A DNA stretch of 64,000 bases, taken from positions 1-64,000 of IMG/VR virus record IMGVR_UViG_3300047496_000262, one strand, 5' to 3'. This document shows positions 2,098-29,172 of the stretch, piece after piece. The notes under the pieces are model-generated. The model worked only from the letters and a program-made list of their open reading frames with translations, was not told the DNA's origin and did no database searches. Each line of letters opens with the position of its first letter. Position 1 is the stretch's first letter. The position numbers were made by a program, and so were the translations under genes. The stretch comes from a virus.

Positions 2098-2106
2098 TCC
2101 TATGCA

Positions 2107-2263
2107 GACATAGCCTAGACCCGCCAACCTAGACATGCCTTGACGGGCGAACCATGACTGGCCAAGCCATACCAAAACTAACCCGGACAGCCTCGACGCT
2201 CCACACCGTGAAGCGCCAAGCCTTGACTCACCCGGACTGCCAAACCCAGCCGTAAACCACCCG
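2107..2263 (-). repeat. Pentamer-periodic array A (G[G/T]Y-NN units), candidate non-coding guide-like RNA
   Basis: Plus strand parses as RMC-NN: accat gactg gccaa gccat accaa aacta acccg |gaca| gcctc gacgc tccac accgt gaagc gccaa gcctt gactc acccg |gact| gccaa accca gccgt aaacc acccg. The 4-nt separators at 2186 and 2235 are 49 nt apart. Confidence 0.85.
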
Positions 2264-2381
2264 GAGGCCCCTGGTTCCGTCATCGGCGCGGATTTCGCGC
2301 TAACGGGAATACTGTGTCATGAGATTTATCGTTCGCGCAACAGGTTTTCGCGTTTGTGAGATTACCGGCCGCACCGGCTGG

Positions 2382-2828
2382 TCATGCGTCGTGGCGGATG
2401 GAAGGCGGGGTGCGTAAGAGCGGCCGGTAATCGGCCAGGGCTTTCGGGTCTGGATTATTCCAGGCATCGAACAGGGACGATTCCCCCTCGGTGGCATGAA
2501 ACAGGTCGCGAGCGCGCAGCCAGATCAGGAAATCCTGGGCCACCTTCGGATCCAGCCAATAGGCATTCCAGCACCAGTTGCCCCACCAATCCTTGGATCT
2601 GATGAACGGCCAGCGCTTGCCGGCGAGGATGAAGTGACCGCCGTCTTCACGGAACCGGGGACACCTTGCGAATGAATACCCGTTCCACTGCTTGGCTTCG
2701 AGTGTCAGCCCATCCGGGTTAATCTCAATTTGAGGGACTCGGCCGGCGAACAGACCGTTATCGGGGTCGTTGCAGGCAAAGTCGAACCGGACCTCATCAG
2801 TGATCCCGTATGGAACAATCGTGTGCAT
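2382..2828 (-). CDS. Hypothetical phage protein (Trp-rich)
   Basis: MHTIVPYGITDEVRFDF... in a coupled minus-strand operon. Confidence 0.7.
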   Translation of the reverse strand: MHTIVPYGITDEVRFDFACNDPDNGLFAGRVPQIEINPDGLTLEAKQWNGYSFARCPRFREDGGHFILAGKRWPFIRSKDWWGNWCWNAYWLDPKVAQDFLIWLRARDLFHATEGESSLFDAWNNPDPKALADYRPLLRTPPSIRHDA

Positions 2829-4071
2829 GGTTGATCCTGTCTGGCTGGTGCAACCGCTCCACGAGGCTGATCCGCTCGCCAATCCATCGGATGACGGGCA
2901 CCGCCATGCTGTTACCCAGCGCGCGATACCGATGGCCGTCAGTGACCGGCTTGCCGCGAAAGGGAATATCGGTCCAGCCGTCAGGAAACCCTTGGAGGCG
3001 CTCGCATTCCAGCGGGGTTAATCGGCGGACGGCTGAGCGCGTGGCAACGGCCAAATGGCCGCCGGCATTGGCGTGGCTTCCGGCGTGACCTAGCGTTCGC
3101 ATGGTCGGGGCCGTATCCCCAGCATAGCCGCCGTCATCCTTGTACGAAAACGCAACAGCACCGACGCCCACGCCGCCCCGGCCGCCGGTCGGGGTCAGGA
3201 CGGCATTCGCAACACCATCGTCGCGCGTTTCAAGCTGATGGCCGTCACCGCGCCCGCGCGAGGCCAACGTGTAGACGAACGTCTCGGTCTCGGCATCGAT
3301 GCGACCATGCGGACCACCATGAGCGCTGAGCGCGTGTGATATCGGGTGCCTCGCCTGCGCTTGGTTATCGTCCGCGCCGCAGGTGCCGACGCCGGTTGCA
3401 GACAGCGCGCCTACAACCAACTCTCCAGCCGCCGCTTCATCCGCCCCTACTCGCCATCCGTTGCCGCTTGAAGTGCCGCCAAGAGTTCCGATGGCAGTGT
3501 CCGGCCTCGGGCCTTGGCCCGTCGTAAGATCCCGGCGCAGGCTCGCGCGCTCAAATAATACCGCTGCGGCACGGGTCCAGTCTCCAAGATATGCAACAAC
3601 GAAGACGCGACGGCGGGATTGGGGCACTCCGTAGTATCGAGCGTCGCAAACGCGGTAAGCGAACCCATACCCGAGTTGCCCCAAGAGCCCGAGGATGGAT
3701 CCAAACGTCCGTCCTCCGTCAAGCGACAGAACGCCAGGGACGTTTTCCCAAACGAGCCAACGGGGCAGAAGTCTCTCAGCAAGGCGTATAAACTCAAGCG
3801 TGAGATTCCCGCGCTCGCCAGTAATGCCCGCTCTAAGTCCCGCGATGCTGAAATCCTGGCAGGGGGTGCCGCCGATAAGAAGGTCAATTGACTGGTAGTC
3901 GCCGGCGTTGATCGTCGTAAAGTCGCCATGCAAAGGGACCCCAGGCAAGCGGTGTTGCAGTAACGCGCGCGGGAACGGCGCGACCTCCGAACAGAATGCC
4001 CCTCGCCACCCCAGCGGCTCCCATGCGACGCTCGCCGCCTCAATCCCGCTGCACACGCTGCCGAAGATCAC
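2797..4071 (-). CDS. dcm: DNA cytosine-C5 methyltransferase
   Basis: GTG start overlapping the upstream stop. Motifs SVCSGIEA, GGTPCQDFS, WENVPG, QSRRRVF, RRLTPLECERLQGFPD, ALGNSM. Confidence 0.93.
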   Translation of the reverse strand: MIFGSVCSGIEAASVAWEPLGWRGAFCSEVAPFPRALLQHRLPGVPLHGDFTTINAGDYQSIDLLIGGTPCQDFSIAGLRAGITGERGNLTLEFIRLAERLLPRWLVWENVPGVLSLDGGRTFGSILGLLGQLGYGFAYRVCDARYYGVPQSRRRVFVVAYLGDWTRAAAVLFERASLRRDLTTGQGPRPDTAIGTLGGTSSGNGWRVGADEAAAGELVVGALSATGVGTCGADDNQAQARHPISHALSAHGGPHGRIDAETETFVYTLASRGRGDGHQLETRDDGVANAVLTPTGGRGGVGVGAVAFSYKDDGGYAGDTAPTMRTLGHAGSHANAGGHLAVATRSAVRRLTPLECERLQGFPDGWTDIPFRGKPVTDGHRYRALGNSMAVPVIRWIGERISLVERLHQPDRINHAHDCSIRDH

Positions 4072-4265
4072 GGGAGCGCCGGGGCGTTGGCCTCGTTCCA
4101 TCGGCGGATGGCGGATTCGTGGGTCGATCCCGTCGCTTGGCTGCCGTGGCTTGGGCAATCGGTGTTTCCACAATAAATAATAAACAACTGCGGTTCCTGC
4201 CCGGTAAAATTAAATGACCGGAACGGCGGTAACTTGCACGCGCGGCAGGGCACTACATCGGTCAT
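4068..4265 (-). CDS. Lar-like (restriction alleviation family) small Zn-binding protein
   Basis: PCxxC...C-x4-C...AIRRWN pattern. Confidence 0.55.
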   Translation of the reverse strand: MTDVVPCRACKLPPFRSFNFTGQEPQLFIIYCGNTDCPSHGSQATGSTHESAIRRWNEANAPALP

Positions 4266-6740: not shown

Positions 6741-7018
6741 GGTGCAAGCTCCGTGGCGATGGCAACTAGGCGCGCCATCCGATCGTGAAATTCCGGGTCA
6801 TACGTGGTGCCGAACACTTCTTCGTCTGACCGCACCATGTCGGACAGCGCCATCACCGCATCCAGCAGGCGCGCGCGGAGGTCGCGGTAGGCGTCGGCAA
6901 GGGTAATGCCGGCGGCCGTGTATTCGGACGAGCCGTAAAACGGATACATTTCCGCTAGCCGGCCGATGACCAACAGCGCGGCCTGGATTTTCTCAGGCGT
7001 CGGGTTCATCTCATTCAC
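6737..7018 (-). CDS. Hypothetical protein
   Basis: GTGA-coupled ORF in the operon. Confidence 0.55.
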   Translation of the reverse strand: MNEMNPTPEKIQAALLVIGRLAEMYPFYGSSEYTAAGITLADAYRDLRARLLDAVMALSDMVRSDEEVFGTTYDPEFHDRMARLVAIATELAP

Positions 7019-7878
7019 ACTCGGTGCTCCACCTGATACGTCAAGATCCACGCCTGGACGATGCGGGCCAGCGGGTTCGTGGCTGGCGTGTCACCGAGAC
7101 TGATGCCGTAGAAAAACCGCTCGACGGGGCTGTAGGAATCGACGAACGGCAGCGTTTGTGCTTTGACCCCGCGCGCGATGGCGATCGTGCCACAGAGACA
7201 GCCGCATCCATTGCGGTTGTAGGCGCTGCCGTCCACTCGACCGGCCCGCAGCGCGGCCAGCAGGGCCGGTATCTCCGGTTGTGCCTGATCAAGCACGCGG
7301 GCGAGGTCGGCGCGAATGGGAGCCCATGACGGGTGGTCAGGCGGCGAGAAAATCGCGCGGGCCAGTCTCGCGCCGGTCAGATTGGCGCCGGTCAGAGTGG
7401 CGCCGGGCAGTCGAGCGTCGGCCAGAGTGGTCCAGGCCAGATCGGCACCGGTCAGATTGGCCCCGGTCAGATCGGCCTTGGTCAGATTGGCCGCGGTCAG
7501 TTGAGCCCAAGACAGATCGGTTTCAATCAGAGTGGCCCCGGTCAGTCTCGCGCCGGTCAGTCTCGCGCCGGACAGAGTGGCGCCGGCCATCCAAGCGTCG
7601 GCCAGTCTCGCGCCGGACAGAGTGGCGCCGGTCAGATCGGCGCCGGTCAGAGTGGACCCGGCCAGATCGGCGCGGGTCAGATTGGCCCCGGTCAGTCTCG
7701 CGTCGGCCAGAGTGGTCCAGGCCAGATCGGCGCCGGTCAGAGTGGCCCCGGTCAGATCGGCCTTGTCGCCGATCGCCGTTTCGAGCGCGACGCGCGCGCA
7801 ATAGGCCGGCTCGGTCCCGTCCGGGATGTCGACCAGCAGCGGCGCACGGTCGGTCTCGAATTGGATAGGATACAGCAT
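7015..7878 (-). CDS. Pentapeptide repeat protein
   Basis: More than 25 A(D/T/R/N)L(T/S/A)(G/x) pentapeptides (15-nt DNA repeats, about 7350-7765), then a C-terminal GRVDGSAY...CGCLCGTIA domain. Confidence 0.92.
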   Translation of the reverse strand: MLYPIQFETDRAPLLVDIPDGTEPAYCARVALETAIGDKADLTGATLTGADLAWTTLADARLTGANLTRADLAGSTLTGADLTGATLSGARLADAWMAGATLSGARLTGARLTGATLIETDLSWAQLTAANLTKADLTGANLTGADLAWTTLADARLPGATLTGANLTGARLARAIFSPPDHPSWAPIRADLARVLDQAQPEIPALLAALRAGRVDGSAYNRNGCGCLCGTIAIARGVKAQTLPFVDSYSPVERFFYGISLGDTPATNPLARIVQAWILTYQVEHRV

Positions 7879-7880
7879 GA

Positions 7881-8075
7881 TCAGGCTCCTTTCCACAAAT
7901 CGCTGCGTCCGAATTTCGCCACCGGCTCGCCCTGGTGGCCGCCACCGTCGCCATCGTCGCACCCGTCGCCCTCGCAGTCCGGGCACTGACGCAGATCGGT
8001 CAGCATCTCCGGGTCATCGTCCTGCGGGTCGTGCCGCATCAGCCGGCCATTCAGGCAGCAGAGGTCGCCTTTCAT
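7881..8075 (-). CDS. Small acidic Cys protein, copy 1 (MKGDLCCLNGRLMRHDPQDDDP)
   Basis: Close paralogue at 9180-9374. Confidence 0.75.
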   Translation of the reverse strand: MKGDLCCLNGRLMRHDPQDDDPEMLTDLRQCPDCEGDGCDDGDGGGHQGEPVAKFGRSDLWKGA

Positions 8076-8995: not shown

Positions 8996-9180
8996 GCTCG
9001 TTCTTTCCAACTAGCGCAGTAATCGTCGCTGACGGTCCAAGGGCGCATGTTGGTATATACTACACCGCCATACGGCGACGGTTCTTGAAACACTTGTGGC
9101 GGTCGTGCATAGCATTGACCACCCGATTTCTTGTCGGTCGAAATCCAATAACTGCACTCGGCGCATATTCGCAGAGACAT
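8992..9180 (-). CDS. Small Cys-rich protein
   Basis: CAECSYW...GQCYARPP...DDYCASW pattern. Confidence 0.7.
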   Translation of the reverse strand: MSLRICAECSYWISTDKKSGGQCYARPPQVFQEPSPYGGVVYTNMRPWTVSDDYCASWKERA

Positions 9181-9374
9181 TATTGCGCCCTCACTAGCCA
9201 GTTGTGGCTTCGGCCCATCTTGCTGACCGGCTCAGGATAGTCGCCGTTCCAATCGCCGCATCCGTCGCCCGAACAGTCCGGGCACTCCCCGATGTCGGTT
9301 TCCAAATCGGGGTCATCGTCCTGCGGGTCGTGTCGCATCAGCCGGCCGGACAGGCAGTAGAGGTCACCTTTCAC
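9180..9374 (-). CDS. Small acidic Cys protein, copy 2 (VKGDLYCLSGRLMRHDPQDDDP)
   Basis: Paralogue of 7881-8075. Confidence 0.75.
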   Translation of the reverse strand: MKGDLYCLSGRLMRHDPQDDDPDLETDIGECPDCSGDGCGDWNGDYPEPVSKMGRSHNWLVRAQ

Positions 9375-22404: not shown

Positions 22405-23058
22405 ATGGCAGCGAAGCGGCGGCAGGATCTGGGCACCAATATGCTGGACCAGACGGCCAAGACCAACACCCACCCGGCGGCGCGGCAAGCGAAGATCGCC
22501 CTTCGCGAACGGGTGCTGAACGCGATCGGCCCCGACCGGTCGATCGTCTTCGATGCGTTTGCCGGCGATGGCGAGATGTATCGCGGCATCTGGCACCGCG
22601 CGGCGCAGTATGTCGGTTGCGACCGGAAATGGTACCGCGACGAGCGCACCGCCTTTGTCGCCGATAACCGGCGGGTGATGCGGGCGATGAGTGCCGCCGA
22701 TCTGAAGCGCTTTACCATCTTCGATTTCGACCCGTATGGCGCGCCCTGGTGGCAGGTGGCGATCCTGATCCAGCGCCGCCGGCTGGATCCCGGCGAGGTG
22801 TTGGGGCTGGTGCTGACCGAGGGCAGCGGGATCTCGCTGAAGATGGGCCATATATCCGGCGGGTTGCAGTTCCTGACCGGGGTGCGCGAGGGCGTGGCGG
22901 GCGGATCCATGGCGCATGAGGAACTGGTGGATATGGCACTGACCCAGACCGCGCGCCGGATGCAGGCCCGAATCATCAAGCGTTGGCAGGGCCGTGGAAA
23001 AACCGGTGCATCCATGCGATATATCGCGGTGCTACTGGAGGGCATCCAGCCGGAATAG
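22405..23058 (+). CDS. SAM-dependent methyltransferase-like protein
   Basis: VFDAFAGDG and FDFDPYG motifs. Confidence 0.65.
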   Translation: MAAKRRQDLGTNMLDQTAKTNTHPAARQAKIALRERVLNAIGPDRSIVFDAFAGDGEMYRGIWHRAAQYVGCDRKWYRDERTAFVADNRRVMRAMSAADLKRFTIFDFDPYGAPWWQVAILIQRRRLDPGEVLGLVLTEGSGISLKMGHISGGLQFLTGVREGVAGGSMAHEELVDMALTQTARRMQARIIKRWQGRGKTGASMRYIAVLLEGIQPE

Positions 23059-23425: not shown

Positions 23426-25393
23426 ATGCCCGCCCGTGGTGCCACGCTGGGCGAGCGGCGACTGGCCGCCAAGCGGCGGCAGGAGATCGAAGCCTATCTG
23501 CTGGACCATCCGGAGGAACGCGCCAAGCTGGATGCGGTGCAGGCAAGGCGCGCCGCGCTGTTACTGGCAAGGGATGAGCGCCGCAAGATCGCCCGCGACG
23601 CCAAGGTGGCCGCCCGCGAGGCCGCCAAGGCGCTGAAACCGGTCAGGCCCAAGCCGGAACCAAAACCCAAGCGCACCAAGAAAACCGCACCCGACCCGGA
23701 TGCGCCGAAGCGCGGCCCCAAGCCCGACCCGAACTCTAAGGCCGGCATCGCCCGGCGCGAGGCGGAGGAACGCAAGGCGCTCAGGGCGGCCACGCGGAAG
23801 ATCGAACGCGCCCAGATCCGCCGCGAGAAAGCCGCCGCCCATGCGCGCCTGATGCGCCAGAAGGCCCGCGACCAACAGGCGGCGGAGGAAGCAGCGGCCG
23901 AACGCCTGAAAGCGGAAGCGCTGGCCGAGGAGGCCCGGATCCGCGAGGAGCGCGGGCTTGAGGAAGAATCGCCCCGCCAGCCCATCGCCGATAACGAGGG
24001 GGATCTCGACCCCAAATTCACGCCCGTGCGCGACGGCAAGAAGCTGCCCCTGCCGCCCGATGTCTGGACGCCCAATCCCGGGCAGAAAAAGGCGATCAAG
24101 CTGCTGACCGGCCGGCAGCGCCACACGCTGATCTATGGCGGGGCCCGGTCGGGCAAGACCACGCTGTTGCTGATCGCCATCGTGACACGGTGCCTGCTGG
24201 CGGCCGGATCCCGGCATGTGATCGTGCGCTCGACCTTTTCCGAGGTGAAGCGATCAGTGTGGGTGGATACGTTCTATAAGGTCATGCGGACCAAGTTCAA
24301 AGGCGTGACCTTCCGCGAGAACAAGCAGGACCAGTTTGTCGAGTTCGCCAATAAATCCACCATCTGGTTCATCGGCCTGGACAAGAAGGAGCGCGCGGAA
24401 AAGATCCTGGGCATGGAGTTCTGCACCATTTTCTGCAACGAGTGTTCGCAGATCGCATATCCATCGGTGATGCTGGCGCTGACCCGGTTGGCGCAGGTGT
24501 GCTTTAAGGCCAATGGCGAGGTTCTGCCCCAGCGGGCCTATTACGATCTGAACCCGGCCGGCACGCAGCACTGGACCTATCTGATGTTCGTCTTGAAGAT
24601 GGACCCGCTGGACAAGCGCCGGGTGCTGGATGAGCCGGACGATTATCAGTACACCACGATCAACCCCAGCCAGAACGTGGCGAACCTGGATCCGAAATTC
24701 CTGCAATCGCTGGAACGGATGCCGCCGCGGTATCGCGCCCGGTTCTTTGAGGGCACCTACCAGAAGGAAATCGACGGCCAGCTATGGACCATCGAGGCGC
24801 TGGCAAAGGCGCGCTGCCAGCCCGAGGACGTGCCGCCCGGCTATAAGCGCATCGTGGTCGCGGTCGATCCCTCCGGTGCCGATGGCAGCGAGGAGAAGCG
24901 GTCGGATGCGATCGGCATCGTGGTGGCCGGCCTGGGCTATGACGATATCGCCTATGTGCTGGAGGATGCGACGATGACCGGCGGCCCGGCGGATTGGAGC
25001 CGGGTGGTGATCCGGCTTTACGATCGATGGAACGCCGACCGGATTGTGGCGGAATCGAATTTCGGCGGCGAGTTGGTGCGCTATACCATCAAGACCCGGG
25101 ACCGGCTGGCGAATGTGCATCTGGTGCGGGCCAGCAAGGGCAAGGTGGTGCGGGCCGAACCGGTTTCGACGCTCTACTTCGCCCCGCTGGAGAATGTGCG
25201 CCATGTGGGCGAGTTTCCGGAACTGGAGGAGGAGTTGCTGAACTTCTCCACCGCGGGCTATCAGGGCAGCCGCAGCCCGAACCGGGCGGATGCGCTGGTC
25301 TGGGCCTTGTCGGATCTGATGGTGCAGGGCCGGCCCCATTGGGCCACCGAGCGCCCGCCGCAGCCCCGGTCGATCCCGATCTTTGCCCGGTGA
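23426..25393 (+). CDS. terL: Terminase large subunit with a roughly 200-aa charged N-terminal extension
   Basis: YGGARSGKT Walker A, IFCNECSQ Walker B, YYDLNP, VVAVDPSG, AESNFGG, SPNRADALVWA nuclease motifs. Confidence 0.95.
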   Translation: MPARGATLGERRLAAKRRQEIEAYLLDHPEERAKLDAVQARRAALLLARDERRKIARDAKVAAREAAKALKPVRPKPEPKPKRTKKTAPDPDAPKRGPKPDPNSKAGIARREAEERKALRAATRKIERAQIRREKAAAHARLMRQKARDQQAAEEAAAERLKAEALAEEARIREERGLEEESPRQPIADNEGDLDPKFTPVRDGKKLPLPPDVWTPNPGQKKAIKLLTGRQRHTLIYGGARSGKTTLLLIAIVTRCLLAAGSRHVIVRSTFSEVKRSVWVDTFYKVMRTKFKGVTFRENKQDQFVEFANKSTIWFIGLDKKERAEKILGMEFCTIFCNECSQIAYPSVMLALTRLAQVCFKANGEVLPQRAYYDLNPAGTQHWTYLMFVLKMDPLDKRRVLDEPDDYQYTTINPSQNVANLDPKFLQSLERMPPRYRARFFEGTYQKEIDGQLWTIEALAKARCQPEDVPPGYKRIVVAVDPSGADGSEEKRSDAIGIVVAGLGYDDIAYVLEDATMTGGPADWSRVVIRLYDRWNADRIVAESNFGGELVRYTIKTRDRLANVHLVRASKGKVVRAEPVSTLYFAPLENVRHVGEFPELEEELLNFSTAGYQGSRSPNRADALVWALSDLMVQGRPHWATERPPQPRSIPIFAR

Positions 25394-25422
25394 CATGGAC
25401 AGTTGAAACCGAAGGAGACAGT

Positions 25423-25735
25423 GATGCGCCGGTTTATGATTATGTACGACGTGCCGGATGATTATCCGGAGATGAAAGGCATCCAGACGCTGGCGACCGA
25501 ATTGTACGAGCGGGACTGGATGCCGATACACCAGGATTCGGGTGAAATGGCAATCATGTTTGGCACAAAGGACATAAGATTTAGATGGTCTATGACCCAA
25601 CTCTCAACTGATTCATTCCCTCCAGAGTATCTCGCAGGCTTGATGAATAAGAATCTGGATCTCACTCAAGAGGCTGCCGAGCAGAACCGGTTATTGGGTA
25701 TAGATGCCGCGCCGGACTTCCCCAGCAAAGCCTGA
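25423..25735 (+). CDS. Hypothetical protein
   Basis: RBS AAGGAG upstream; lower-GC ORF. Confidence 0.6.
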
Positions 25736-26009
25736 TCCCATCCTTTTGCGCTTGGCCCAGGTGCAGAAGGACGCAAATGGCTATTTCCAGCGGGCGATGC
25801 GGCGCGAGAATGCCCCGACCGAGCGCATCGGCTGGGAGATGCGCGAGTTCCGCAAGGCGCTGATCGACCGGCAACCTCTGGTGCAATTGAGGATTCTGGA
25901 GAAGTACCGATCCCGGATGCGCGAGTGGTATTTCGCGCCCGAACGCCGCTTTGCCGGCATGGCGCGGGGCGAGCCAGCGGAAGATCCGGCCGCGGCATCG
26001 AAACGCTGA
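25704..26009 (+). CDS. Hypothetical protein (start uncertain)
   Basis: Coding-like ORF ending just before array B. Confidence 0.45.
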   Translation: MPRRTSPAKPDPILLRLAQVQKDANGYFQRAMRRENAPTERIGWEMREFRKALIDRQPLVQLRILEKYRSRMREWYFAPERRFAGMARGEPAEDPAAASKR

Positions 26010-26040
26010 TACCGCGGCCGGAAGGTGCTTGAGAGACAGG

Positions 26041-26357
26041 ACCTGCCGCACCGAACCCGGCCCGACCCCGCCGCGCCCCACCTTGACTGCATGACCAGGA
26101 CGCGCCGCGACGTAACGAGCCTTGACCCACCACGACCGCCCTGACTCGCCTTAACCGGCCAAGCACACCTCGCCTCGACCGCCAGACCGTGACGCGACAG
26201 ACAAGGCCTAGACCCACCTTGACTGCCGAACCCGGAACAAACACGACGGGCCCGGCCAAAACAAGCCCTGACCGCCTTGACGGTCGCACCGGAACGCGCC
26301 TCGACACGCCATACCTCAACGTGCCCCACCTTGCCTGAACCCACCTCAACACACCAA
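26041..26357 (-). repeat. Pentamer-periodic array B (G[G/T]Y-NN units), candidate multi-unit guide-like RNA array
   Basis: Plus strand: |acct| gccgc accga acccg gcccg acccc gccgc gcccc acctt |gact| gcatg accag gacgc gccgc gacgt aacga gcctt gaccc accac |gacc| ... Separators at 26041, 26085, 26134, 26177, 26221 and 26270 give units of 44, 49, 43, 44 and 49 nt. Confidence 0.9.
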
Positions 26358-26391
26358 ATTTGGACCGTCTAACCTTCCTTGACCGCGGCTC

Positions 26392-26709
26392 CTAAGCCGC
26401 CATATCCGCCTCATTATCCGGCGGATCCTGCTCCGACCCGTCGTCGTCACCGCGTTGAATCGCGCGGATTTCGGCGTCGATGCCGGTAATTTGTTGCACC
26501 AGAAGCGCGCGGTTGCATCTCAGCCGGCCCAGCAGAAGTTCGTTTAGCGCCATGATAGTACGAACGTACACCGGAACCGGCAGATCGCCGCTGACCCATC
26601 GATAAACCGTGTTCAGGGCACAACCGGCCTGGGCGCCCAGTTGCCGGCGGCTGATGCCCAGCGTCTTCAGCGCGGCATTCAGCGATTTTCCATCGGTGAT
26701 CGGGCTCAT
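26392..26709 (-). CDS. XRE-family HTH transcriptional regulator
   Basis: LKTLGISRRQLGAQAGCALNTVYRWVSG...VPVYV. Confidence 0.8.
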   Translation of the reverse strand: MSPITDGKSLNAALKTLGISRRQLGAQAGCALNTVYRWVSGDLPVPVYVRTIMALNELLLGRLRCNRALLVQQITGIDAEIRAIQRGDDDGSEQDPPDNEADMAA

Positions 26710-26921
26710 GATGGTCCTTCCCCGGTGGCGTACCGCAACGACGTGATCGTAAAGGCCGATGGCCCGACCCTGATGCCGCCCAGCATTTCGGCCGGCACCA
26801 GCGGATTGATGCCGGCACCGGCCTTGTTGGCGACCTCGACCGCGCCCAGGAGCGTGGCGGCCAGACCGACGGTGCGGCCGTCCAGGACAACCCGGCGGAT
26901 GCGTTCTGCCCGGGCGCTCAT
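26706..26921 (-). CDS. Hypothetical protein
   Basis: ATGA-coupled ORF MSARAERIRR. Confidence 0.5.
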   Translation of the reverse strand: MSARAERIRRVVLDGRTVGLAATLLGAVEVANKAGAGINPLVPAEMLGGIRVGPSAFTITSLRYATGEGPS

Positions 26922-27124
26922 GCCGCCTGTTCCAGGGCTTCGGCCAGGGCGTACCAGCCGGCGATATGGCGGAGGTCCATGGTGATGACCTGGGCGTCGT
27001 CCGTGGTCAGACGGCCCATCGCGTAGCGCCACGCCATGCGGAAGCGATTGGCCTTGTGGGCGACGCGCTGGCGGAGATGCCAAAGCTGATACTGCACCTC
27101 GCGGAGCGGGGGATTGTGAATCAT
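26918..27124 (-). CDS. Hypothetical protein
   Basis: RBS GGAAAGG; first gene downstream of the 27223 promoter. Confidence 0.6.
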   Translation of the reverse strand: MIHNPPLREVQYQLWHLRQRVAHKANRFRMAWRYAMGRLTTDDAQVITMDLRHIAGWYALAEALEQAA

Positions 27125-27194
27125 AGCATCGTTGCCTTTCCTGTTGATTTCTCAAGGCCGCGTCGTGCGGCGATGAGGCGAGAATCGCGGATTA

Positions 27195-27223
27195 GGTCTA
27201 TCAAGGATTTCGCGCGAGCGCAA
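27195..27223 (-). promoter_or_regulatory. Promoter/operator upstream of the operon that ends in array B
   Basis: TTGCGC-N17-TAGACC on the minus strand; TCGCGCGAGCGCAA at 27210-27223. Confidence 0.55.
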
Positions 27224-27230
27224 GTATTTT

Positions 27231-27644
27231 CTATGACGCGCACATCTCCGCGGCACAGCCCACCTCGCTGTGGAGCGTGACCGAACGCTGCTGCCATCTT
27301 CCCTCCCGGCGGCCGGCGCGGGCGTCATCGTCGAAGCGGATGCCTTCCGGCCAGACACCGGGATTCCGGGGCGGGATCAGGTTGGGCGGGCGCACCCGTT
27401 CCGCCTTGATATCGGCGGCATAGCTGGCCCGAACCTTGGTCATGGTCTGGGCCAGGATGGCGCGGCGGATCTCCTTGCTTTTGACCAGCTTCATCCGCTG
27501 CGCGACATGGACCAGCCCGCCCATGGTGAGCACGAAGGGGTGACATTTAGCGTTGATCATCGGCAGCAGCACCGAGTTGGGCGTATCGCGATAATGTTCG
27601 GCCACCATCGCGTCGATCAGCGGTTTCAGTTGCAGCCGATCCAT
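27231..27644 (-). CDS. Hypothetical protein (possible HTH)
   Basis: Coupled ORF; HYRDTPNSVL...VHVAQRMKLVKS. Confidence 0.65.
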   Translation of the reverse strand: MDRLQLKPLIDAMVAEHYRDTPNSVLLPMINAKCHPFVLTMGGLVHVAQRMKLVKSKEIRRAILAQTMTKVRASYAADIKAERVRPPNLIPPRNPGVWPEGIRFDDDARAGRREGRWQQRSVTLHSEVGCAAEMCAS

Positions 27645-28120
27645 CAGCCGGCCCCCAGATTCGCAATGGCGCGCGAGTATTTATTCCAGGAGGCCGCGAC
27701 CGAGATCACATGGGCGGGATCACGGCCCAGGATCCGTTGGCGCAATTCCCACCGGATGATGATGTCGCGTTCCTTGCGGGATCGGATGGATTGGAAAGGC
27801 TCCATCAAAGCCCGCATGTCGGTGATGCCGGCCAACTCGGCCAAGTCATCAATATCGGTGGTGCTCTCCACCAGCGCGCGGACCCGATCAATGTCCGATA
27901 TCCGTTTCGATTTGATGAGCATCGGCACCTCCTCTGCACCGTCACTTTCCTGCCGGCGGCGCATCAGCGCCTCGACCGCCAATTGGACCGCGCGCGATAT
28001 GGTGACATGACAATTCTCGTACATGCAAACCGTTATTCTGGTGACGCCCAGGGCTTGCGCGAACAGGCGCTGGGTCAGGCCCAGATCGTGCCGGCACTGC
28101 CGAATCTCCGCCCCGGTCAT
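27644..28120 (-). CDS. XRE-family HTH transcriptional regulator
   Basis: MTGAEIRQCRHDLGLTQRLFAQALGVTRITVCMYEN. Confidence 0.85.
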   Translation of the reverse strand: MTGAEIRQCRHDLGLTQRLFAQALGVTRITVCMYENCHVTISRAVQLAVEALMRRRQESDGAEEVPMLIKSKRISDIDRVRALVESTTDIDDLAELAGITDMRALMEPFQSIRSRKERDIIIRWELRQRILGRDPAHVISVAASWNKYSRAIANLGAG

Positions 28121-28228
28121 CGGATCCCCGGCGTCCAGATGCGGCGGTAACTCGGTCGTGCCCAGCCGCAACCGTTTACGAATCGCCAAAACGGGCCTCC
28201 GAATCGCCAAAACGGTGGTTGCGATCAG

Positions 28229-28537
28229 TCATGATGCGTCACGGCATAGCACCAGGGCGGGGTGATCCGGCGGGACCCCGTTGGCAATCGCCATCGAACG
28301 GAAGTCTGGATAGATCGGCACCGTTGGACTTAATAAATTGTCCTTCTGGAGTCGTTGGCGAAAGACGCCGCAATAAGAGTACGGATCACGCGGGCTGGCC
28401 GGGCAGTGGATGTCCGCGACCCCATGTTTGTCCAACAATGTGGCGATGCGGATAAACTCCTCAAGCGGAATTGTTCCGGTCGGAAAATCCATACGCCACG
28501 GGCAGTGTTGGCACGGCCAATATCCATTTCCGCTCAT
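28229..28537 (-). CDS. Cys-rich hypothetical protein
   Basis: PCQHCPWR...HC...YCG...YPDFRSMAIANG. Confidence 0.65.
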   Translation of the reverse strand: MSGNGYWPCQHCPWRMDFPTGTIPLEEFIRIATLLDKHGVADIHCPASPRDPYSYCGVFRQRLQKDNLLSPTVPIYPDFRSMAIANGVPPDHPALVLCRDAS

Positions 28538-29172
28538 TGCGCTCGTTGCTCCATTTTGGCCGCCTGCTGGACCCGGACCATCTTGCGGTACCGGCCGCGG
28601 CGTTCCGAGCCCTTTTTGCCAGGCTTGTCCCAATCGTGGCCGTCCGCTTCGCAGAGAATGCGGGCGGCGGCGTCGAGCGCTTGCGATGCGGCCCGTTGGA
28701 TCTCTGCGCGTTGCTTCATCTCCGCATAGGCCGCCTCGCGGGCTTCTGCTTCCGCCTGTTGCTTGGCGGCGATCCGCGCCATGTCGCGCTTCATCCGGGC
28801 CGGCGGCTTGATCTGGAAACCCGCCATGATGGCGACGGCCAATTCCCGCCAGGACCGATAGGATGTCTGGTCCGGCGACGATGTATAGCGCGGTTCGCGG
28901 GTGAAGCCTTGGCCCAGATCGGTCCGCCATTCGTAATCGGTCTCTTCCGCGCGGTCCCAAATGTCGGACACGCGCCACGGGTTTGATGCCGGGTTAGGAT
29001 GATTGCTGATGCGGAGCGACACCGGCACCGCGTCGCCCTCGGTGCGATCATGTTCCGAGCGGTAGATATAGAGATAGGCCGATCGGCTTCGACGCGATCG
29101 GTTCATCTCCACATAGAGCCCAGCGCCGCGGAAAGCGGCGCTGAACCAAGCGACGGGCGCCAGATCGGTCAT
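28534..29172 (-). CDS. Hypothetical protein
   Basis: SRSAYLYI...LRISNH motif; coupled ORF. Confidence 0.65.
   Translation of the reverse strand: MTDLAPVAWFSAAFRGAGLYVEMNRSRRSRSAYLYIYRSEHDRTEGDAVPVSLRISNHPNPASNPWRVSDIWDRAEETDYEWRTDLGQGFTREPRYTSSPDQTSYRSWRELAVAIMAGFQIKPPARMKRDMARIAAKQQAEAEAREAAYAEMKQRAEIQRAASQALDAAARILCEADGHDWDKPGKKGSERRGRYRKMVRVQQAAKMEQRAQ

Follow-up and report, generated by a model that had tools for sequence, protein, structure and literature searches.

Three dispersed pentamer arrays with the grammar of staggered VIPR guide RNAs on a moss-metagenome phage record without a detected vipr gene

VIPR systems, first described in 2026, combine a minimal RAMP protein, Vipr, with vrRNAs that are built from GGY/NN pentamers (10.64898/2026.04.26.720920). 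The vrRNAs read double-stranded DNA and skip every third base (10.64898/2026.04.26.720920), and structures of the system have been reported (10.64898/2026.04.26.720927). VIPR is related to CRISPR, and Vipr itself is Cas7-like, with an RRM core, a thumb and a C-terminal G-loop. Seven VIPR types are currently distinguished, some of which use related consensus motifs other than GGY, and internal degeneracy is normal in working vrRNAs (10.64898/2026.04.26.720920). In staggered arrays, the end of one vrRNA is also the start of the next, with an overlap of 1 nt (10.64898/2026.04.26.720920, main text and fig. S18 legend). These staggered arrays have so far been presented only in a supplementary figure (10.64898/2026.04.26.720920). 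The type II locus of phage SUSP1 (KT454805) contains vipr at 28474-29061, vap1 at 28031-28471 and four vrRNAs. Guides can also occur on their own, as the solo vrRNAs found on F5 satellites and on 346 VIPR-null SUSP1-like enterobacterial phages redirect the Vipr of a rival element (10.64898/2026.10.15.759431).

The locus described here lies on IMG/VR virus record IMGVR_UViG_3300047496_000262, a linear sequence of 79,848 bp from a moss metagenome, with a GC content of 63% and a CheckV completeness of 88%. The window that was analysed is a stretch of 64,000 nt (positions 1 to 64,000 of the record). Viral carriage of the arrays is supported by the IMG/VR virus classification of the record and by a terminase large subunit recognised through Pfam families, and reading of the ORFs adds a small terminase subunit, a ParB-like protein and other phage-type genes. 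The left end of the record truncates a ribonucleotide reductase gene, and on a circular map the unassembled ∼12% of the genome would fall between two of the arrays described below (arrays C and A). The phage has no DNA match in the phages collection, and in IMG/VR only three relatives, all distant, were found by terminase; the best terminase identity anywhere is 56%. An Rfam scan of the record at gathering score returned one tRNA only, with no family in or near the arrays.

Organisation and statistics of array B

On the minus strand, positions 26365 to 26033 parse into ∼65 G-[G/T]-Y-N-N pentamers, which we call array B (Table 1). The original prediction, made from the sequence of the window, had described about 60 consecutive minus-strand GGY/GTY + NN pentamers with a period of 5, and both the chain and the periodicity statistics place this pattern far above shuffled sequences. 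Autocorrelation over 26041-26357 is 0.43 at lag 5, compared to 0.24-0.34 at lags 1-4 and 6-9, and the signal echoes at lags 10, 15 and 20. Expressed as identity, lag 5 reaches 0.428 versus 0.311 for shuffles (maximum 0.372). The number of units that sit in in-register chains of three or more is 57, whereas 300 shuffles averaged 5.7 and never exceeded 18, and the longest chain runs for 14 units, where the same number of shuffles gave a mean of 3.2 and a maximum of 6.

Composition of the pentamers was analysed together with that of two sister arrays (A and C), and all three share one grammar. The arrays contain ∼185 units in total, and 170 of these conform to G[G/T]YNN. While the G at scaffold position 1 is fixed by the parse itself, the 170 units carry G (64%) or T (36%) at position 2 and C (69%) or T (31%) at position 3. 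Both NN positions are near-random, at 1.94 and 1.99 bits, with a dinucleotide entropy of 3.86 out of 4. Like VIPR vrRNAs, the 170 units in three arrays are tandem pentamers in which a GGY-type scaffold is combined with hypervariable NN. Because no unit is a copy of another, slippage is excluded as the origin of the array, in agreement with the prediction that this is not a slippage microsatellite. No guide is repeated between arrays A, B and C; blastn matches between them extend to 19 nt at most and are centred on GTCRAGGC. Folding of array B as RNA gives a z-score of -3.8 versus shuffles, which we do not accept as designed RNA structure, since the pentamer pattern itself is also lost on shuffling. 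The sole other period-5 signal within the window, at 7300-7800, belongs to a pentapeptide-repeat coding gene and is no array.

Array B is cut into seven blocks of 17, 2, 10, 9, 9, 10 and 11 units. Each block begins with GTC, and neighbouring blocks are joined through a 1-nt overlap, GGCNG/TC, where the slash marks the block boundary. All block junctions in arrays B and C read [G]GCNG/TC with a frame step of -1, which is the staggered layout. A closer look at the junctions shows that the register resets noted earlier at 26085, 26134, 26177, 26221 and 26270 are exact, as they correspond to the plus-strand GAC of minus-strand GTC block starts at 26087, 26136, 26179, 26223 and 26272. As to the extent of the array, the tract was recognised correctly but its start was not; the true start lies slightly farther upstream, at the GTCCA of 26365. 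The last unit of the first block (B1), GACCG, is a degenerate GGCCG and forms the 1-nt overlap with the next block. This second block (B2), with its two units, is probably a vestigial guide.

Table 1. Features of the three arrays and their surroundings, in coordinates of the record
Feature	Position	Strand	Basis
Array A, ∼30 units, 4-5 blocks	2105..2262	-	Grammar scan and parse
148-aa gene in the position usual for vipr, ∼120 nt upstream of array A	2382..2828	-	Sequence and predicted fold
Perfect 10-bp GC hairpin, CCGGCCGCGG / CCGCGGCCGG, 16-nt loop	25986..26021	.	Sequence reading
Array B, staggered VIPR-type vrRNA array	26033..26365	-	Parse, shuffle test, grammar as in Vipr-linked IMG/VR arrays
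Block B7, 11 units, final block of array B	26033..26087	-	Sequence reading, parse
Block B6, 10 units, last unit TGCAG (degenerate GGCAG)	26087..26136	-	Sequence reading, parse
Block B5, 9 units with a single 4-nt unit among them, end GGCGG	26136..26179	-	Sequence reading, parse
Block B4, 9 units, one non-conforming, end GGCGG	26179..26223	-	Sequence reading, parse
Block B3, 10 units, one non-conforming, end GGCAG	26223..26272	-	Sequence reading, parse
Block B2, 2 units only (GTCAA GGCGG)	26272..26281	-	Sequence reading, parse
Block B1, 17 units, counting the leading GTCCA and one unit that does not conform	26281..26365	-	Sequence reading, parse
105-aa helix-turn-helix regulator gene	26392..26709	-	PHROG 4779 transcriptional regulator, E 1e-4; weak Pfam HTH_23
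Array C (outside the window)	71861..72287	-	Grammar scan and parse

Array B lies 650 bp downstream of the terminase genes and begins within ∼30 nt of the stop codon (26392) of the helix-turn-helix (HTH) regulator gene. This gene is the last in a minus-strand early operon, and the array follows it at the 3′ end of this operon, as had been proposed. On its other side, a GC hairpin is placed between the end of the array and the stop of the convergent gene 25704-26009. Judged from its sequence, the hairpin is likely a bidirectional terminator, though it has no T-run, and a consensus terminator scan did not call it.

RNA data for this region come from the assembled contigs of one moss metatranscriptome, which is filed twice, as X3 and X4; the contigs are strandless, give no RNA ends and may include DNA carry-over, and stretches of the array that lack RNA cover were given no weight. 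Six short contigs of this RNA library map to a 5-kb stretch around array B. One of them, 142 nt in length, corresponds to 26265-26406 and extends from sequence upstream of the array as far as blocks B1-B3. A further four fall within the upstream minus-strand operon (26497-27990) and the sixth is located at 25357-25507, while the terminase gene has no RNA-library contig within the 5-kb stretch. These contigs weakly suggest read-through from the early operon into array B.

A scan of the whole record with the grammar of array B identified the two sister arrays, both on the minus strand, and together the three arrays comprise ∼19 guides. Array A sits between the 148-aa gene and the class II ribonucleotide reductase gene, and its 3′ part is ragged. 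Array C is the cleanest of the three, with a short first block followed by blocks of 13, 12, 11, 9, 9, 15 and 10 units. A sigma-70-like site is found ∼40 nt upstream of array C on the minus strand (TTGACC, a 16-nt spacer and CAAAAT), and a GC hairpin follows the array. The three placements are thus an array at the end of an operon (B), an array with a promoter-like site (C) and an array ahead of a reductase gene (A).

Junction grammar and its association with vipr

The junction grammar of array B was used to query IMG/VR, in the form of three GKYNN units, GGCN-GTCNN-GGYNN and three more GKY units, and retrieved at least 118 viral contigs. The fetched loci were then searched for Vipr using an HMM built from 120 homologues of the SUSP1 protein, and among the matches listed a Vipr homologue is present in 88 of 118, with E values from 1e-8 to 1e-19. 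Association of the arrays with these genes is tight in position as well as orientation. Among the matches listed, vipr and the largest array share a strand in all 87 scored loci, with a median gap of 131 nt, an array lies within 2.6 kb of vipr in 87 of the 88 vipr-bearing loci, and 95% of the units across Vipr-linked loci are downstream of vipr. In most of the listed loci in which vipr is lacking, the array is at a cut end, where vipr would lie. From the orientation of the Vipr-linked arrays, it follows that the minus strand is the sense strand in this phage.

The Vipr-linked arrays also share their internal features with array B. Among the matches listed, a gap of -1 is found at 144 of 167 junctions, and blocks start with GTCAAGG, GTCGAGG and similar sequences and end with GGCGG or GGCAG, as in array B. 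The GTY form makes up 27% of units in these arrays overall, with a median of 29%, so that the scaffold T of 36% in this phage is above the median of the matches listed and within the range of the class. One difference is found at the block ends, which in this phage are often GGCCG instead of GGCGG or GGCAG; among the matches listed, GGCCG is rare in Vipr-linked arrays (11 of ∼400). The original prediction had named VIPR-type systems as the match for this array, and this is supported by the retrieval of Vipr-linked loci with the junction grammar (88 among the matches listed) and by the published description of VIPR. Its further suggestion, that the frequent GTY triplet and the GGCRGTC junction represent a variant grammar, does not hold, as both are normal for the Vipr-linked class among the matches listed.

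Based on the co-occurrence with vipr, the shared strand and the shared features in IMG/VR loci, the grammar of array B is the signature of published staggered VIPR vrRNA arrays and no new code. G[G/T]Y units are thus normal in the staggered class. In addition, the grammar (GKYNN)n-GGCN-GTCNN-GGY finds Vipr-linked arrays in IMG/VR with high specificity and can therefore be used as a finder for the class.

We conclude, with a probability of roughly 0.85, that array B encodes VIPR-class guide RNAs in the published staggered layout. By analogy with the VIPR papers, array B would be transcribed from right to left as the distal end of the early HTH operon; cuts at the overlaps would release RNAs of ∼45-85 nt. 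Each G[G/T]Y triplet is expected to be clamped by one Vipr protomer, leaving the exposed dinucleotides to pair with double-stranded DNA, with every third base skipped. The predicted outcome is that a gene of a competing mobile element is silenced. Loading of arrays A, B and C would depend on a Vipr encoded elsewhere, because vipr was not found on the 79.8 kb of the record.

Searches for the reader and for targets

Arrays A, B and C all lack the vipr gene that usually lies beside such arrays. The original prediction had proposed a search of the rest of the record for a RAMP-like protein, and HMMs, hhalign and profile searches found none. With SUSP1 Vipr as the query, phmmer identified no homologue on the record. 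The type II HMM, run over all 79,848 bases, gave a best E value of 0.3, and an HMM of the staggered clade (81 sequences) gave a best E value of 4.7 over the record. The best probability from hhalign against 278 ORFs is 4.6%, a profile search of the record with alignment A1 returned no match, and regular expressions for the G-loop retrieved no Vipr from the record. The same models recover Vipr from 88 of the 118 comparison loci among the matches listed. These negative results apply to the ∼88% of the phage genome that the record contains. The comparison was also extended to accessory proteins, and no vap-like or other protein is shared between the phage and the 118 VIPR loci, nor is a recognisable vap present on the record.

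Three genes were considered as possible readers and rejected. The 148-aa gene upstream of array A is in the right position and belongs to a family of 368 representatives, with no Pfam or PHROG match. Its AF2 model is confident (pLDDT 88.7) and mostly beta structure, but likeness to a RAMP protein was not detected, as comparison of the fold with the PDB gave E ≥ 0.29 in Foldseek and Z ≤ 3.0 in VIA. In the first gene of the operon (209/225 aa), the C-terminal motif looks like a winged helix by eye and not like a G-loop. For an ORFan at 25424-25735 there is no homologue, and the predicted fold (pLDDT 40) is unusable.

Other IMG/VR phages with an array of this class have been recovered without a Vipr. 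One of these, G003, is 97% complete and contains one array and no Vipr. Another, G008 (77 kb, CheckV 100%), also contains no Vipr; it is left out of the clean orphans here because its array abuts the contig end.

Targets were searched with the rule of a 1-nt skip between dinucleotides (NNx), and scans of the large collections used exact matches. No guide has a match above shuffled guides in the genome of the phage itself, and this lack of self-targets agrees with the published behaviour of real vrRNAs. The same was found for 1 Mb of VIPR loci, where no guide match rises above shuffled guides. Exact NNx scans of IMG/VR with four guides gave 0, 0, 6 and 1 matches, with the two zero results coming from two long guides. 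The six matches were rejected as targets; they lie on contigs that range from 29 to 66% GC and all encode a common helix of the LTEELAELE type, which is the kind of match that a codon-shaped pattern gathers by chance. In the genome collection, exact NNx scans gave 0 and 1 matches, the latter a perfect match (11/11) in an unrelated MAG. In metagenomes, one perfect match (11/11) was found in glyS of a soil bacterium, where the skipped base falls on codon position 1. The glyS and MAG matches were also rejected, as the loci are unrelated and ∼0.3-0.5 such matches are expected by chance. For the gapped targets in phages or hosts that the decoded NN strings were predicted to have, these scans gave only chance-level matches.

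Alternative readings and comparison with known systems

For arrays without a nearby vipr, it is only slightly less than an even bet that Vipr is supplied in trans by a co-resident phage, a prophage or the host. A related and tentative view is that the phage is truly readerless, and that its ∼19 guides in three arrays commandeer the Vipr of rival phages or prophages in the host. Alternatively, the system is complete, with vipr, and probably a fourth array adjacent to it, in the unassembled ∼12% of the genome, which would make A, B and C remote arrays. We consider it quite conceivable, at somewhat below even odds, that the unassembled segment supplies Vipr, and give the same standing to the complete system as a whole. 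The state of the assembly speaks for it, as the record is linear, is estimated at 88% and cuts the reductase gene at its left end, and so do the IMG/VR records that lack vipr at the array locus, in which the gene often turned up in another part of the record (G002, G005, G006 and G009-G013). However, an array lies so close to vipr in nearly all of the vipr loci listed (within 2.6 kb in 87 of 88) that three arrays without vipr are difficult to fit. By size alone, the missing part is only ∼12% likely to hold any given gene. The 32-mers at the contig ends, which might have led into the missing segment, are matched in no other IMG/VR contig.

Other readings question whether the arrays act as guides at all. 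The arrays could serve as a sponge, in which G[G/T]Y units with no target soak up the protomers of a competitor and act as an anti-VIPR decoy RNA. This would agree with a record on which neither a vipr nor a target was found, and solo vrRNAs have been published as diverting the Vipr of a rival (10.64898/2026.10.15.759431). The published solo vrRNAs, however, still act through specific decoy or vipr targets, and a sponge would have no need for the blocks of 9-17 units and the precise 1-nt overlaps that are kept in all three arrays. The diversity of NN is also maximal, with no drift to an easy repeat, and we regard the sponge as improbable. It is about as improbable that the arrays are decaying relics, out of use after loss of vipr. 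While the missing vipr would be explained, and degenerate spots do occur (the 2-unit B2, the 4-nt unit in B5, GACCG, TGCAG and the ragged 3′ part of array A), 170 of ∼185 units conform and array C is almost perfect. The grammar is kept at three separate loci, one of them with a promoter-like site and a hairpin, and degeneracy within the guides is published as normal for vrRNAs that work. A repeat that acts at the level of DNA, such as protein binding sites, iterons or a packaging signal, or a product of slippage, with no RNA element involved, is the reading to which we assign next to no probability. Its appeal comes from the location 650 bp downstream of the terminase genes and from the recurrence of GTCRAGG every ∼45 nt, but a 5-nt unit with two free bases and frame steps of 1 nt fits no known array of binding sites. 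The grammar is also strand-specific, being co-oriented with vipr in all 87 scored loci among the matches listed, and slippage is out because the units are not mutual copies.

A VIPR-class guide array thus remains the preferred reading of array B. What is particular to this phage is the combination of three dispersed arrays and ∼19 guides with no adjacent reader, and none on the 88% of the genome that is assembled. The phage is therefore a candidate for a guide-only parasite of the Vipr of other elements, outside the Enterobacteriaceae. If this is true, the guide-only strategy would be far larger than the one or two solo vrRNAs known so far from enterobacterial phages and would involve a different VIPR clade and host group; once confirmed, such parasitism would broaden the "guns for hire" view of VIPR conflict. 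If vipr is instead in the missing segment, the phage would represent one more phage VIPR system with remote arrays.

Compared to CRISPR, including the orphan mini-arrays carried by phages, the arrays share short programmable guides, an alternation of fixed and variable sequence and a reader of the RAMP fold, and in both cases mobile elements can carry arrays without the effector genes. Unlike CRISPR, there are no repeats of 25-40 nt, no contiguous spacers and no cas genes here; fixed and variable bases interleave every 5 nt, and recognition is non-contiguous.

The SUSP1 system is closer. Its arrays use the GGY/NN code with an occasional GTY, are intergenic and are on the vipr strand. In contrast to the guides of this phage, which abut one another and are tail-less, the vrRNAs of SUSP1 are separate units of ∼100 nt, and every one of them has a leader of its own and a structured 3′ tail. 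The SUSP1-type Vipr is also only distantly related to the Vipr clade that accompanies the grammar of array B (HMM E values of 1e-8 to 1e-19).

The closest match is to staggered VIPR arrays, which are likewise phage-borne tandem pentamers of three fixed and two hypervariable bases, arranged in blocks of ∼9-17 units, with the final base of each guide doubling as the first of its successor. Unlike those systems, this record has no vipr or recognisable vap, and its three arrays are dispersed, where the published layout has one array directly 3′ of vipr.

In this last respect, the phage resembles the carriers of solo vrRNAs, as a mobile element that encodes vrRNA genes and, as far as assembled, no Vipr of its own, with the presumed use of loading and redirecting the Vipr made by another element. 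The published solo case consists of one or two type II vrRNAs of ∼100 nt that have a conserved 3′ pseudoknot tail and are located in the scar left by a vipr-vap1 deletion (10.64898/2026.10.15.759431). Here, by contrast, ∼19 tail-less staggered guides are spread over three arrays of a moss-metagenome phage that is unrelated and has 63% GC, no deletion scar was identified, and the array flanks have no homologue of any VIPR-locus protein. Because the guides lack tails, segments shared between arrays do not exceed 19 nt and no VIPR-locus homologue flanks them, the arrays are outside the published SUSP1-type solo class, while their way of working may be similar.

Staggered arrays A and C and their surroundings

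Arrays A and C are staggered G[G/T]YNN arrays encoded on the same strand as array B, and array C, with eight blocks, is the cleanest on the contig, having a promoter-like site of its own and a GC hairpin on its 3′ side. Apart from the arrays, a period-5 signal arises in the window only from a pentapeptide-repeat gene, whose repeated unit has a 15-nt period; it was rejected as an array.

Coordinates of the features discussed (L001 is the contig stretch beyond the window; L001 position + 64,000 = contig position)
Feature	Position	Strand	Remarks
Array A	window 2105-2262	-	
47-nt direct repeat	window 2367-2413; contig 77861-77907		96% identity
148-aa protein gene	window 2382-2828	-	just upstream of array A
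C5 methylase	window 2797-4173		
Pentapeptide-repeat protein gene	window 7015-7986	-	A(D/N)L(T/S/A)G-type repeated unit
ParB-linked methylase	window 22405-23058		
103-aa ORFan	window 25424-25735	+	between terminase gene and array B
Array C	contig 71861-72287 (L001 7861-8287)	-	
Promoter-like site of array C	L001 8353-8326		
GC hairpin	about L001 7840-7805		
tRNA gene	contig 73590-73662 (L001 9590-9662)	+	Rfam RF00005, 57.5 bits
Eco57I/N6-type methylase-like gene, then BsuBI/PstI restriction-endonuclease N-terminal domain gene	contig 74945-77330 (L001 10945-13330)	+	
Array of G003	G003 9025-9250	+	single, staggered, about 33 units

Neighboring genes

The 148-aa protein has almost invariant CNDP and GNWCWN motifs, and its family numbers 368 representatives. 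AlphaFold gave a high-confidence model (pLDDT 88.7), but no fold match to it was found in the PDB (VIA Z <= 3.0); the protein is small, widespread and without a recognised fold. The window copy of the 47-nt repeat spans the stop and final codons of this gene, while the second copy lies within a plus-strand gene region close to the right end of the contig, and the repeat may mark a recombination or module boundary.

The DNA of the 103-aa ORFan is AT-richer than the contig (about 48% versus 63% GC), and no homologues were found in 5.8 billion proteins. Its structure prediction was unusable (pLDDT 40); at the sequence level, its N-terminus (MIMYDVPDD) loosely resembles the first strand of Cas2/RRM proteins. 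The phage bears several modification genes, namely the pair made up of the Eco57I/N6-type methylase-like gene and the BsuBI/PstI-domain gene, the C5 methylase and the ParB-linked methylase, as well as a tRNA gene.

A guide match treated as chance, and an orphan-like array in G003

Guide B7, the last block of array B, has a perfect 11/11 dinucleotide match at positions 3103-3134 of a metagenome contig (L131, Ga0307474_10013285), inside a soil bacterium's gene for the beta subunit of glycyl-tRNA synthetase. The skipped base coincides with position 1 of the codons. With about 0.3-0.5 matches of this kind expected by chance, we treat this one as chance too.

G003, a 40-kb IMG/VR phage record (locus L116) rated 97% complete, is unrelated to the present phage and has a similar pentapeptide-repeat gene. 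No homologue of Vipr, the RAMP protein expected to read such arrays, was found across this record, and compared with the present contig, G003 is the cleaner case of an orphan array.
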